This document shows, in pieces, positions 8,731 to 36,724 of a DNA stretch of 60,871 bases. Position numbers and translations under genes: made by a program. Source of the DNA: a bacterium (GTDB lineage Bacteria > Patescibacteriota > Minisyncoccia > Portnoybacterales > JAKAHB01); contig JAKAHB010000001.1 of NCBI GenBank assembly GCA_021815315.1, positions 54,580-115,450 of the forward strand. Reading direction: 5' to 3'. Below the pieces are notes generated by a model that worked only from the letters and a program-made list of their open reading frames with translations, was not told where the DNA came from and searched no databases. How positions within the stretch are numbered: position 1 is the first letter of the stretch; every line of letters begins with the position of its first letter.

Positions 8731-9483
8731 TTAGGCGTTGCGGGCTTCAAGGCCCTGGGTGATCTCCTCAACGATAAGCCGAGCCATATCGGCGCAACTC
8801 TTGCCCTCTTGAGGCTTGCTGATAGCCCGCCCGACGACGATGGCGTCGACGTCTTTTTCGATGGCCTCGGCCGGAGTCATTGTCCGGCGTTGGTCGTTTT
8901 GGGGTTGGCCGGGAAGTCGGATGGCCGGGGTGATTTTGATGAGCCCCTTGAGCTCGGGGTAGTCCCGGAACATCTCCAGCTCTTGGGGAGAGCAAATGAT
9001 GCCGTCGGCCCCGCCCAAAACCAGATTGCGGGCACAGTAAAGGACCTGGGCTCGGACTGAACGCCCCAGTAAAAGTTCGGCCTCCACCGGGTCAATGGAG
9101 GTGAGGACGCTCACACCCAACAAGATGGCCCTACCCTTGTTTTGGGCGGCGGCCCGGATAGCCGCCAGGCTGTTGTCGGCGTGGATGTTGATCATGCTGG
9201 CTCCTTGGGCGACAGCCGCTTTTATGGTTGCGCCCACGGTGTTGGGAATGTCCTTGGCCTTGATGTCCAGGAACCAGGGAGCTTCGAAGTCTCCCAGGAT
9301 AGCGGCCATGCGGGGGACGCCTGCGGCCGCGATAAGTTCCAGGCCGACTTTGAACAAGCCGACCTCGTCTTTGAGCTCCGCGATAAGAGAGATCGCTTCG
9401 GCGGAGGTTGGGACGTCCAAGGCAAAGATCAGCCGATCCTTGGGCTCCTTGAACAACTCACTTTTGTGCGAGGCAATTTGCAT
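8731..9483 (-). CDS. pyrF: Orotidine 5'-phosphate decarboxylase (high-GC)
   Basis: Carries DRLIFALDVP, FKVGLEL and FLDIKAKDIPNTV, the D-x-K-x-x-D-I-P-N-T signature of OMP decarboxylase. Confidence 0.8.
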   Translation of the reverse strand: MQIASHKSELFKEPKDRLIFALDVPTSAEAISLIAELKDEVGLFKVGLELIAAAGVPRMAAILGDFEAPWFLDIKAKDIPNTVGATIKAAVAQGASMINIHADNSLAAIRAAAQNKGRAILLGVSVLTSIDPVEAELLLGRSVRAQVLYCARNLVLGGADGIICSPQELEMFRDYPELKGLIKITPAIRLPGQPQNDQRRTMTPAEAIEKDVDAIVVGRAISKPQEGKSCADMARLIVEEITQGLEARNA

Positions 9484-9541
9484 GACAACCCTCTCTATGT
9501 TTAGTGTGCGGGATCATCCAGCCACAAGGGATGGATGATTT

Positions 9542-9570
9542 ATTATAGGGTAAAAGATTTTTAAACGCAA
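9542..9570 (-). promoter_or_regulatory. Sigma70-like promoter for pyrF-pyrE
   Basis: The minus strand reads TTGCGT, a 17-nt spacer, then TATAAT. An 8-bp inverted repeat ATCATCCA...TGGATGAT (9513-9539) follows in the leader. Confidence 0.45.
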
Positions 9571-9629
9571 GAGAAAAGTGAAAATAAAAGCCAGCCTTTT
9601 TGGGAGGCGGCCTTTTGAGGGTTTGATGT

Positions 9630-9714
9630 TGGTGCCCGGGGCGGGACTTGAACCCGCACGGATTGCTCCACAAGATTTTAAGTCTTGCGTGTCTGCCAGT
9701 TCCACCACCCGGGC
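9630..9714 (-). tRNA. tRNA-Leu (anticodon TAA), class II, CCA encoded
   Basis: Acceptor GCCCGGG/CCCGGGC, anticodon stem CAAGA/TCTTG with loop CTTAAAA, long variable arm, T-arm GCGGG-TTCAAGT-CCCGC. Confidence 0.85.
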
Positions 9715-9721
9715 GTTGGTA

Positions 9722-9976
9722 TTACCTTGCTGATTCTCTTACTATCTGTCTAAGAGAGCTTCTACCTTTACTTGTTTTGAAATATTTTTCTCTCCTAATC
9801 GCATCCTTTTTACTTAAAAATGCTTCATAGAAAATCAGCTTGACGGGAAGCATTCTTTTTGTTGTCCAAACTTTTCCGCTTTTGTGTTCCAAAAAACGTC
9901 TTTTGAGATTATCGGTCCTGCCAATATATAGTCGGTCGTTTTCTCTTTCACTTCTTAATATATATACGTAATGCAT
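9722..9976 (-). CDS. Small GIY-YIG nuclease (COG2827/UPF0213-like, catalytic domain only)
   Basis: 84 aa. MHYVYILRSERENDRLYIGRTDNLKRRFLEHKSG has the Y-I-L...Y-I-G-x-T...R...E pattern of GIY-YIG. Confidence 0.8.
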   Translation of the reverse strand: MHYVYILRSERENDRLYIGRTDNLKRRFLEHKSGKVWTTKRMLPVKLIFYEAFLSKKDAIRREKYFKTSKGRSSLRQIVRESAR

Positions 9977-9988
9977 CTTTTATATTTT

Positions 9989-10040
9989 ACCCCGAACCAC
10001 ATGGGGTTCGGGGTACCCGGCACCCTACGTGGTGCCGGGT
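9989..10040. repeat. Two adjacent GC-rich 10-bp-stem hairpins
   Basis: ACCCCGAACC-acatgg-GGTTCGGGGT (9989-10014) is followed directly by ACCCGGCACC-ctacgt-GGTGCCGGGT (10015-10040). Confidence 0.8.
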
Positions 10041-10075
10041 AAGTCTTGCGTGTCTGCCAGTTCCACCACCCGGGC
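10040..10075 (-). repeat. Duplicated 5' half of tRNA-Leu(TAA), positions 1 to about 35
   Basis: The 36 nt taagtcttgcgtgtctgccagttccaccacccgggc at 10040-10075 are identical to 9679-9714. Confidence 0.9.
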
Positions 10076-10215
10076 TTTATCTTTTTTTCTGTCCTAATCG
10101 TAATTTTTATGGCCCCAAAATCTCGTTTCATAATGAACGGCTAATGCCTGCTAAGCCTTTATTTAAGCGACAATTAGCCACTGGTCGCTAGACCCTAGTC
10201 GCTAAGAACGCTGTG

Positions 10216-10287
10216 AGGCCGGGAGGAGAATCGAACTCCTGAATAAGGGTTTTGCAGACCCTCGCCTTACCACTTGGCTACCCGGCC
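10216..10287 (-). tRNA. tRNA-Cys (anticodon GCA)
   Basis: Acceptor GGCCGGG/CCCGGCC, anticodon stem AGGGT/ACCCT with loop CTGCAAA. Confidence 0.85.
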
Positions 10288-10296
10288 TTTGGTTCA

Positions 10297-11328
10297 TTAA
10301 AGTTTTTTTCTCTGCTTTATTTTTTTTACAAAATCTCGGTAAGTGTCCCGTGGCGTTTTTTCTGTTTCAAATCCGGCGGCCACCAGGTGCCCTCCACCGC
10401 CAAACAAATTGGCGAGAGAGGCGACGTCGTATTCTTTCTCACTGCGCAAACTGGCTTTTGTTTTTTTGGGTTCCCATTCAAAGAGGGTCAGAGAAAAATC
10501 TATCCCTGGGACACCAGCCAAGATGTTGGCAAGCCCAGTCAAGCTCTCACGATTTATATTATATTTTTCTATTGTTTGATGGTCAAGTTGGAGGTAGGCA
10601 AAATTAACTTCCCGATTGATCTCCAACCGCTCAAAGGCGAGAGACAAGGCCCTGGTCGCGCTTTTTAAATCTTTTTGGGCGGTTTGTCTAATAATTTTTT
10701 CCATCAGCACCCCCTTGTTAAGCAGGCGGCTGGCAACCTCCAACGTTTTTGAAGTGGTAGAAATATGGCGAAAATTTCCAGTGTCGCTGACAATTCCGGC
10801 CAAAAGGCAGGTGGCAATTTCTTTTTTAAAGTCTATCCTATTGAGATAAAAAAAGTCGGCAATGATTTCGCAGGTTGAGGAAGCCTTTTCATCAACAACC
10901 AAAATATCCCCAATCTGGTTATACCGTAAATGATGATCAATGGTTATAAAAAAGATTTCTTTTTTGGCGATGTCCTCTTTGATTTCTTTGGGAAAAGCCA
11001 AACGGTCAAAATTGCCGTAATCAAGGCCGATGGCAACCTTAGGTGAAAAACTATCCGATGGTATTATTGCACTCTTTTGCACTATTTTGCACTCTTTTGC
11101 ACTCAAATTTAAGGCATCTTTTATCCCGGGGAGAAAATAAAAATCTTTATAGGAGTCATCTTGAAAAAGAATGGCACTTTTTTTGTTTTGTTGTTTTAAC
11201 CAAAGATGTAACGCCAGGGCGGAGCCAATCCCATCGGCATCGGCCTGTTGATGGCAAGCGAGAACAAAGCTTTCTTCTCTTTTTAAGACGGCAAAAATCT
11301 CTTTAAGTTTTTGTTCTCTTTCGTCCAT
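10297..11328 (-). CDS. nrnA: DHH/DHHA1 phosphoesterase (NrnA-like oligoribonuclease/pAp phosphatase)
   Basis: Carries HQQADADGIGSALAL, ITIDHH and GGGGHLVAAGF motifs. Confidence 0.8.
   Translation of the reverse strand: MDEREQKLKEIFAVLKREESFVLACHQQADADGIGSALALHLWLKQQNKKSAILFQDDSYKDFYFLPGIKDALNLSAKECKIVQKSAIIPSDSFSPKVAIGLDYGNFDRLAFPKEIKEDIAKKEIFFITIDHHLRYNQIGDILVVDEKASSTCEIIADFFYLNRIDFKKEIATCLLAGIVSDTGNFRHISTTSKTLEVASRLLNKGVLMEKIIRQTAQKDLKSATRALSLAFERLEINREVNFAYLQLDHQTIEKYNINRESLTGLANILAGVPGIDFSLTLFEWEPKKTKASLRSEKEYDVASLANLFGGGGHLVAAGFETEKTPRDTYRDFVKKIKQRKKL
11067..11103. repeat. Four TTGCACT motifs at exact 10-nt spacing inside nrnA
   Basis: ttgcactc ttttgcacta ttttgcactc ttttgcactc. The motif starts at 11067, 11077, 11087 and 11097. 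Confidence 0.9.
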
Positions 11329-36578: not shown

Positions 36579-36650
36579 TTTTTGGCGGATAGCGGGTGGC
36601 GATGGCTCGCAGGAATACTATCTGCCCCAGGCTATTATCTGCCGTTGACG

Positions 36651-36724
36651 TGGGCCTGGATGGACTCGAACCATCGACCCCAGCTTTATAAGAGCTGTGC
36701 TCTGACCAACTGAGCTACAGGCCC
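36651..36724 (-). tRNA. tRNA-Ile (anticodon TAT)
   Basis: Acceptor GGGCCTG/CAGGCCC, anticodon stem CAGCT/AGCTG with loop CTTATAA, so positions 34-36 are UAU. Confidence 0.8.

Follow-up and report, generated by a model that had tools for sequence, protein, structure and literature searches.

Integrative elements classically leave partial tRNA repeats behind. Islands and prophages of the integrase type insert within a tRNA gene, commonly in its anticodon loop or T-loop, carry a replacement tRNA part by which the intact gene is restored, and are flanked by a partial direct repeat; they use a tyrosine or serine recombinase, duplicate the 3' part of the gene, and span kilobases. IS200/IS605 elements and the REP/BIME sequences associated with RAYT proteins combine small palindromic hairpins, often in inverted doublets, with one small nuclease gene (HUH Y1), and single-stranded DNA structure is their suspected substrate. 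In cyanobacteria and plastids, a group I intron interrupts the tRNA-Leu(UAA) gene at U34/A35, its classical site. GIY-YIG nucleases of the phage Seg and I-TevI type (∼200–250 amino acids [aa], with a C-terminal DNA-binding domain) are encoded beside their presumed targets and spread by break-and-copy with co-conversion of the flanks; one of them, SegB, is reported to act in a tRNA gene cluster and to promote segmental amplification (PMC13096335). In a 60,871-nucleotide (nt) stretch of bacterial DNA (the window), an open reading frame (ORF) for an 84-aa GIY-YIG protein lies between a broken and an intact copy of tRNA-Leu(UAA). Here, we compare this locus with the described systems and with its relatives in other genomes, and propose that it is probably one copy of a selfish cassette family specific for tRNA genes.

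As in integrase-type islands, the insertion lies within a tRNA gene, the intact gene is restored by a replacement part, and a partial direct repeat flanks the element; unlike them, the locus has no recombinase gene, the repeat is usually of the 5' part, and the insert measures 361 nt. The hairpins, the single small nuclease gene, and a suspected single-stranded substrate recall IS200/IS605 and REP/RAYT. There, however, hairpins are found at both ends or dispersed and no target sequence is duplicated, whereas here the sole ORF encodes a GIY-YIG protein, the hairpins stand on one side of it and are not dispersed, and 2–3 nt are duplicated. The cassette and the tRNA-Leu(UAA) group I intron interrupt the same gene within 1 nt of the same anticodon position, but the cassette lacks a ribozyme core, is accompanied by an intact rather than an interrupted gene, and uses other tRNAs and other loops. 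The resemblance to Seg and I-TevI lies in a GIY-YIG gene beside its presumed target, in the break-and-copy spread that we infer for the cassette, and in the 2-nt staggered cut, which would fit a TA duplication seen in the window. In contrast to those systems, the cassette family is cellular rather than phage-borne, has a conserved hairpin pair and a half-tRNA repeat, uses many tRNA species at four structural positions, and leaves the target intact.

Slx1 cleaves branched and stem-loop DNA in a structure-specific manner. We know of no function or genomic association for the stand-alone UPF0213/Slx1-like proteins of bacteria. Dunin-Horkawicz et al. described prokaryotic Slx1-like proteins as a minimal domain form with no assigned role; occasional fusions of the domain to a TrmH-like tRNA methyltransferase were taken to hint at a part in RNA metabolism (PMC1564403). 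The protein encoded in the window has its best sequence and fold matches in UPF0213 (BH0048 and EF2693) and Slx1 and shares this minimal form. It differs from Slx1, which contains a RING domain and depends on Slx4 as its partner, and from the described UPF0213/Slx1-like proteins in its tRNA linkage, hairpin pair, and relic tRNA copies, for which no such description was found.

Results

Architecture of the tRNA-Leu(UAA) Locus

The locus is read on the minus strand of the window (Table 1). The 36-nt sequence GCCCGGGTGGTGGAACTGGCAGACACGCAAGACTTA occurs exactly twice in the window, at 9679–9714 and 10040–10075, both on the (-) strand, and two matches were seen in 0 of 100 shuffles; including flanks, the repeat extends to 39 nt with one mismatch. 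The first of these positions belongs to the intact tRNA-Leu(UAA) at 9630–9714, the sole tRNA with a UAA anticodon in the window. A preliminary description, made from the window alone, had listed a 36-nt tRNA-Leu copy, two GC hairpins, an 84-aa GIY-YIG ORF, a 7-nt gap, and the intact tRNA, and all were located as listed. Its account of the duplication as a 5' half held for the exact 36-nt copy but was incomplete, having missed TAAAAT (U34–U39) after the second hairpin (H2). The upstream copy is therefore more than a 5' half, and consists of tRNA positions 1–36, the hairpin pair, and positions 34–39. The dinucleotide TA (U34 A35) is seen three times, before the first hairpin (H1), between H1 and H2, and after H2, which places the breaks at 33/34 and 35/36. 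Because the anticodon loop resumes after H2, the hairpin pair lies inside the anticodon loop of the relic copy.

The loop design of H2 is the reverse complement of that of H1, making the pair a palindrome of palindromes, and the H1 stem can be extended by pairing of the flanking TA (10041–10040) with TA at 10015–10014. Folded as single-stranded DNA, the relic and hairpins gave −25.4 kcal/mol (z = −3.9). Of the 361-nt insert (10075–9715), ∼106 nt are non-coding. The window holds one insertion, and its relic has not diverged from the gene, suggesting either a recent insertion or homogenization via gene conversion. The possibility that the 5' arm of H1 (CCCGGCACCA) derives from the 3' end of the tRNA (CCCGGGCACCA) was also considered; hairpins in other loci do not match their own acceptor ends, and the resemblance was treated as coincidence.

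Table 1. Features of the tRNA-Leu(UAA) locus, in order along the minus strand of the window
Feature	Position	Strand	Remarks
tRNA-Cys(GCA), upstream neighbor (context only)	10215..10287	(-)	ARAGORN
Spacer, tRNA-Cys to relic, 139 nt			presumed native 5' flank of tRNA-Leu
Relic copy of tRNA-Leu(UAA), positions 1–36 (canonical 1 to A35)	10040..10075	(-)	36/36 identical to functional gene
Hairpin H1, CCCGGCACC-ACGTAG-GGTGCCGGG	10016..10039	(-)	stem 10039–10031 / 10024–10016, loop ACGTAG; inverted repeat
Central TA between H1 and H2	10014..10015	(-)	complementary to flanking U34 A35; pattern X-H1-X'-H2-X
Hairpin H2, CCCCGAACC-CCATGT-GGTTCGGGG	9990..10013	(-)	stem 10013–10005 / 9998–9990, loop CCATGT; inverted H1 design
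Segment B, TAAAAT (U34–U39 of tRNA-Leu)	9984..9989	(-)	TA repeated as 2-nt target duplication
Leader ATAAAAG, 7 nt, before start codon	9977..9983	(-)	read from sequence
GIY-YIG ORF, 84 aa	9722..9976	(-)	Slx1/UPF0213 type, catalytic domain only
Spacer TACCAAC, 7 nt, stop codon to tRNA position 1	9715..9721	(-)	read from sequence
Intact tRNA-Leu(UAA)	9630..9714	(-)	ARAGORN; Rfam tRNA 58.6 bits; co-oriented with ORF

The Cassette Recurs at tRNA Genes in Many Phyla

In contigs representing one genome per species, all of them from metagenome assemblies, 307 relatives of the nuclease were confirmed, and 80 loci containing 86 gene copies were fetched. The nearest tRNA gene was within 300 nt in 72 of the 86 copies, invariably on the same strand (72/72), and within 60 nt in 48, against a background density of 0.074 tRNAs per kb in the same loci. 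In most tRNA-linked copies, the ORF ends 2–49 nt upstream of an intact tRNA (Leu UAA/CAA/UAG, Gln, Ser, Met, or Tyr), across an AT-rich spacer with no conserved motif; in the remainder, the intact tRNA lies just upstream of the ORF (mostly Asn, Arg, Ser, Gln, and Asp). Every locus has an uninterrupted tRNA, and the leaders are short and unconserved across loci. The host lineages include Patescibacteria, Omnitrophota, Planctomycetota, and other phyla.

The full architecture was defined by three features: a GIY-YIG ORF of ∼83 aa, co-oriented with an intact tRNA no more than about 60 nt away; a pair of covarying hairpins immediately upstream of the ORF; and abutment of the hairpins on a relic of the same tRNA that is broken at a loop. 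The window locus has all three, as do L003–L007, L009, L010, L014, L015, L018, L020, L021, L026, L028, L030, L035, L040, L049, L052, L071, and L072. In 22 loci besides the window, with tRNA-Leu(UAA), Leu(CAA), or Gln, the 5' relic duplicates the tRNA that lies downstream and breaks off at anticodon base 35 in Leu or 36 in Gln; next come two hairpins, a second anticodon plus a few loop and stem bases (segment B), a short leader, and the ORF. Resumption of the tRNA as segment B is common to all anticodon-class loci. The relics end 56–180 nt (most 56–92) upstream of the ATG and are exact over positions 1–36 in L026, L030, L049, L052, and L071 and over 1–35 in L007. The cassette consists of a palindromic hairpin pair, a very short leader, and a GIY-YIG gene, is always co-oriented with the tRNA, and lies between a broken relic and an intact copy of the same tRNA. 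The junction of hairpins and relic coincides exactly with a single-stranded landmark of the cloverleaf; in the window, this is the anticodon loop, where the 2 nt TA are duplicated. The preliminary description had read the locus as the trace left by a small GIY-YIG cassette directed at the anticodon region and had set beforehand, as a point on which this would stand or fall, that other instances should exist in related genomes; at least 22 further loci with the same unit, and the same-strand tRNA genes beside 72 of 86 family members, bear it out.

Recurrence was first hinted at by database ORF calls with N- or C-terminal extensions that proved to be translated tRNA or hairpins, for example N-terminal TYPALRRVLGTLNPTWFRVK (hairpins) and C-terminal AELVDARDLKS (tRNA-Leu), among proteins P0002, P0004, P0006, P0008, P0013, and P0038. 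Such extensions flag cassette loci, and the cassette explains two kinds of annotation artifact in genomes of uncultured bacteria, namely tRNA fragments and GIY-YIG ORFs with tRNA-derived termini. The nearest neighbors of each protein mostly share its tRNA species, at 60–85% identity. Two cassette lineages, L018 in the anticodon loop of tRNA-Leu(CAA) and L046 in the T-loop of tRNA-Tyr, occur in one assembly (QIFI01), and each protein is closer to copies in other genomes than to the other. At L105–L114:1818–3267, from one Moranbacteria-like population, the GIY-YIG gene adjoins a convergent gene for a large serine recombinase (Resolvase and Recombinase domains), which may represent a separate element integrated at the same spot. 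L009 and L024, like the window, have a same-strand tRNA-Cys gene upstream.

Hairpin Pairs Occupy Four Positions of the Cloverleaf

Summed over four positions, about 50 loci have the hairpin pair directly against a tRNA, broken or complete. The break falls in the anticodon loop at 23 loci including the window, in the D-arm or D-loop at 10, in the T-loop at 3, and at the 3' end, immediately following the discriminator base, at 14; these classes were assigned by inspection of the loci, as automatic classification of break positions proved unreliable. All four positions are single-stranded landmarks of the cloverleaf. At loop sites, a direct repeat of 2–3 nt flanks the pair and the spacer between the hairpins is its complement, so that repeat, spacer, and repeat read TA/TA/TA at Leu(UAA), CA/TG/CA at Leu(CAA), TTG/CAA/TTG at Gln(UUG), and CG/CG/CG in T-loops; further spacers are TAG at Gln(CUG) and TTA in L049.

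Across the 80 loci, 96 hairpins of this design lie within 450 nt of a GIY gene and 14 elsewhere, and in the 61-kb window H1 and H2 alone fit the design. An interpretation of the hairpins as genome-wide REP-like repeats was rejected on these grounds. Compensatory double changes were found in 14 of 18 stem pairs among 26 loci; these loci were picked by a hairpin filter, which makes the percentage of paired positions circular but not the diversity of the stems. G-U pairs are as rare in the stems as other mismatches, and this rarity, together with the mirrored H2 loop, fits a DNA palindrome better than an element acting only as RNA.

Several loci depart from the simple arrangement. In L030 (2821–3000), about 2.5 tandem copies of a hairpin-pair unit of ∼67 nt, comprising three H2-type and two complete H1-type hairpins, lie between relic positions 1–36 of tRNA-Leu(CAA) and the ORF. 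Single hairpins are also found in the T- or D-loops of relics. L014 (4404–4600) and L048 (3884–4000) contain relic tRNA-Met-like fragments downstream of tRNA-Met genes, with single hairpins of the same design in their T-loops, 700–1200 nt from the GIY gene and without an ORF of their own. L017 (2740–3370), L022, and L050 each contain a 5' half with hairpins, an intact tRNA-Leu(UAA), the ORF, and hairpins with a 3' half (positions 34–86); L022 has a further hairpin in the T-loop of a downstream relic, and L050 has hairpins in the D-loop of an upstream relic.

The Nuclease Consists of a Slx1/UPF0213-Type Catalytic Domain

The window ORF matches Pfam PF01541 (GIY-YIG) with E = 6.3e-16 and 58.9 bits against a cut-off of 22.6, and the domain match, the motifs, and the conserved Arg and Glu place it in the GIY-YIG superfamily. 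Among 38 relatives, Y5, Y17-I-G19, R27, H31, and E63 vary little or not at all; the window protein has these and all ten family-invariant residues (Y5, G19, R27, H31, E51, R62, E63, Y65, K67, and G71). More than 120 close relatives are ∼83 aa long, mostly from Patescibacteria. A profile search of the PDB returned the UPF0213 proteins BH0048 and EF2693 and an SLX1 homolog (1zg2 at 1.3e-12, 1ywl at 6e-10, and the SLX1 homolog at 3e-3). The AlphaFold model of the window protein (mean predicted local distance difference test score, 92.9) was most similar in Foldseek to BH0048, At-HIGLE, and Slx1-Slx4, with I-TevI at rank 15 and UvrC at rank 43, and its template-modeling score to Slx1 was 0.57–0.70.

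The preliminary description had drawn an analogy with the Seg proteins, which was not supported. All 84 aa of the window protein belong to the catalytic domain, leaving no DNA-binding domain of the Seg/I-TevI kind; the size and composition are those of stand-alone Slx1-like/UPF0213 proteins (∼80–110 aa, catalytic domain only), which are also its nearest relatives. Its score for TIGR01453, the group I intron endonuclease family, was 20.2 bits against a cut-off of 56, no PHROGs family matched it, and viral contigs held one relative among 2.9 million. Given these profile and fold matches, the sub-threshold TIGR01453 score, the lack of a PHROGs match, and the scarcity in viruses, the protein is classified, on sequence and predicted structure, as a catalytic-domain-only nuclease of the Slx1/UPF0213 type rather than of the Seg/I-TevI type. 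A phage origin was rejected on the PHROGs result and the single relative in viral contigs, and membership in a defense system on the finding of only weak, partial matches over the GIY motif to the PADLOC candidate PDC-S14.

Putative Traces of Movement

The relic 5' half is identical to the adjacent gene in at least 34 of 36 positions in 12 of 23 loci. In L004 and L015, the relic fits tRNAs of other genomes much better than the local one (34 vs. 27 and 33 vs. 27 of 36, respectively), and the D-stem of the L015 relic is compensatory (GTG/CAC vs. GCG/CGC in its own gene), which indicates that this relic is a genuine different tRNA and not a product of decay. Foreign segments B were found in L021, where the segment equals the window tRNA at 13 of 13 positions and not its own, and in L006; L029, at a tRNA-Asn site, carries a segment B like that of Gln(UUG). 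Upstream of the relic, the repeat runs on into the spacer in L071, L026, and L007 and into the 3' end of the ORF in L026 and L007, which suggests that an older cassette copy may once have stood upstream; in L007, a run of N interrupts the region upstream of the relic. Tandem GIY genes are present in L059, L072, L077, and L079. With respect to the site-specific cleavage and one-way gene conversion that characterize Seg/I-TevI-type homing endonucleases, the mosaic relics, foreign segments B, and tandem vestiges are indirect traces only.

Discussion

We propose that positions 10075–9715 of the window are probably one copy of a tRNA-gene-specific selfish cassette that spreads by break-and-copy repair using tRNA homology, its mobility and the cleavage that would drive it being inferred from comparison of sequences. 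The nuclease would cut tRNA genes at the loops of folded (cloverleaf or hairpin) DNA with a stagger of 2–3 nt; recognition of structure is probable because the protein has no sequence-reading domain. An occupied allele would then serve as the template from which repair copies the cassette; both homology arms would be tRNA sequence, the left one relic positions 1–35 and the right one the full tRNA. The old 5' half would be displaced and replaced by the one that the cassette supplies, so that a working tRNA-Leu(UAA) is kept. The ORF would be read from the tRNA promoter as a relic-hairpins-ORF-tRNA transcript, from which RNase P would free the tRNA. As the intact tRNA would stay a target, re-invasion could generate tandem copies, and the tandem vestiges may reflect such repeated cutting.

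A number of observations weigh against this proposal. Segment B matches the local tRNA specifically in L018, L026, L010, and L028, which simple homing from a foreign donor does not predict, so that some events may have been de novo insertions or followed by later conversion. The nearest family proteins are just 60–85% identical, which implies that most insertions are old and that vertical inheritance with decay explains part of the pattern. Scans of metagenomes found no polymorphism between occupied and empty alleles: an exact 46-nt tRNA pattern had no match in metagenome contigs, and a 28-nt pattern retrieved 24 loci (22 tRNA-Leu(UAG) and 2 tRNA-Leu(UAA)) from unrelated genomes, none with a cassette. 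An exact-protein look-up of the neighboring PyrF likewise returned no match, no close relative of the window locus emerged from the scans, and P0097, an identical homolog in 24 contigs, had the same context in all ten places listed. A neighboring tRNA that stays cleavable would be unusual for a homing system, the repair model alone does not account for a role of the hairpins, and the activity of the nuclease, the form of its target, and transcription of the cassette are predictions.

The main non-selfish alternative is a function of benefit to the host. A resident housekeeping factor, co-transcribed with tRNA genes and serving their processing, repair, or locus maintenance or acting on their transcripts, would have hairpins that stabilize the 5' end of the mRNA or act as processing signals, and relics that are by-products of local tandem duplication. 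The strict co-orientation and tight spacing, protein clades that follow tRNA species with old divergence, and the Slx1-like/TrmH-like fusions with their hint of RNA metabolism (PMC1564403) would all suit such a gene, as would the loci of the 3'-end class, where tRNA 3' processing would leave a hairpin at the very 5' end of the mRNA. We nevertheless regard it as rather unlikely, since the neighboring tRNA varies by genome (Leu, Gln, Ser, Met, Tyr, Asn, Arg, Asp, Lys, Gly, and Pro) and lies more than 100 nt away in some of those loci, one assembly can hold several lineages (L018 and L046), relics and segments B match foreign tRNAs, tandem and ORF-less hairpin relics are present, and the rarity of G-U pairs and the mirroring of H1 by H2 favor a DNA palindrome over a signal confined to RNA. 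The next alternative is a true transposon: the hairpin pair would be its recombination end, the nuclease a structure-guided transposase that inserts it into loops of folded tRNA-gene DNA with a 2–3 nt duplication, and ORF-less hairpin units its non-autonomous derivatives. The X-H1-X'-H2-X pattern with its short direct repeats at loop sites, the single hairpins in relic T-loops and D-loops with no ORF nearby, the local segments B of the four loci named above, and the Slx1-like fold are in keeping with this. We know, however, of no GIY-YIG enzyme with strand-transfer activity; most loci lack a second hairpin end downstream of the ORF, the hairpins are not dispersed (0 at the other 22 tRNAs of the window), and a 2-nt stagger leaves the long half-tRNA repeat unexplained, so that a transposon in this sense appears unlikely.

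The preliminary description had linked the locus to the group I intron of tRNA-Leu(UAA) and offered, as another origin, a collapsed intron-bearing allele. Such an allele, with a GIY-YIG homing gene in a group I intron or with an intron spliced by proteins, would have collapsed beside an intron-less copy. The break does fall within 1 nt of the intron site, the 5' half with hairpins and the hairpins with 3' half of L017 resemble one interrupted gene, and the complementarity of inter-hairpin spacer and anticodon recalls some pre-tRNA introns. Searches of both strands of 9300–10400 for group I and group II introns and other RNA families matched the two tRNAs alone, with other hits at chance level and no intron or ribozyme model reaching E ≤ 10. 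Of the insert, only ∼106 nt are non-coding, and the endonuclease reaches 20 of the 56 bits required for the group I intron endonuclease family. With no ribozyme, an intact gene always present, and many insertion positions, an intron origin is very improbable; the near-coincidence with the intron site carries no special weight because cassettes of this family are found at the D-loops, T-loops, and 3' ends of other tRNAs as well. It is more doubtful still that the repeat is the scar of an unrelated integrase-type element or an artifact of assembly or chance. Integrative elements do leave partial tRNA repeats, the data are metagenome assemblies, and one homolog adjoins a serine recombinase gene; yet no integrase or other mobility gene was found near the window locus, the repeat is of the 5' half and brackets 361 nt alone, an exact 36-nt repeat is unexpected by chance, and recurrence of the same architecture in more than 40 independent assemblies already contradicts this explanation.

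The proposed cassette is akin to known nuclease-driven selfish cassettes and to tRNA-targeting elements that regenerate their target, and there is a real chance that its targeting principle is itself new. A bolder proposal, which we hold only tentatively, is that the family could be a new class of autonomous mobile element, in which a structure-specific GIY-YIG nuclease made up of the catalytic domain alone recognizes the folded DNA form of tRNA genes rather than their sequence, makes cuts staggered by 2–3 nt in the D-, anticodon-, or T-loop or at the acceptor end, installs a palindromic hairpin doublet together with its own gene, and regenerates the tRNA. A full-text literature search, partial in coverage, found no description of tRNA-linked small GIY-YIG cassettes, and the cassette, which is widespread, is apparently undescribed. 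If the proposal of a selfish cassette is right, a self-contained element of only about 330 nt inserts in an essential gene without splicing and meets the cost of insertion by duplicating part of its target. It would also give stand-alone bacterial UPF0213/Slx1-like nucleases a first biological role, and suggest that the cloverleaf formed by tRNA-gene DNA can guide a nuclease as a structural address.

The genes flanking the locus in the window are of housekeeping type and encode a phosphoribosyltransferase, PyrF, a DHH/DHHA1 protein, and RbfA. A promoter and terminator scan of 9450–10350 gave nothing above shuffle expectation and was uninformative on transcription of the ORF. A spurious 58-aa ORF (9955–10131, (-) strand) spans the relic and the hairpins. 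The window contains 23 tRNA genes in 61 kb, of which the 22 others have neither a hairpin pair nor a partial copy; among the 23 is a tRNA-Ile with the anticodon UAU (36650–36724, (-) strand), which is uncommon in bacteria.

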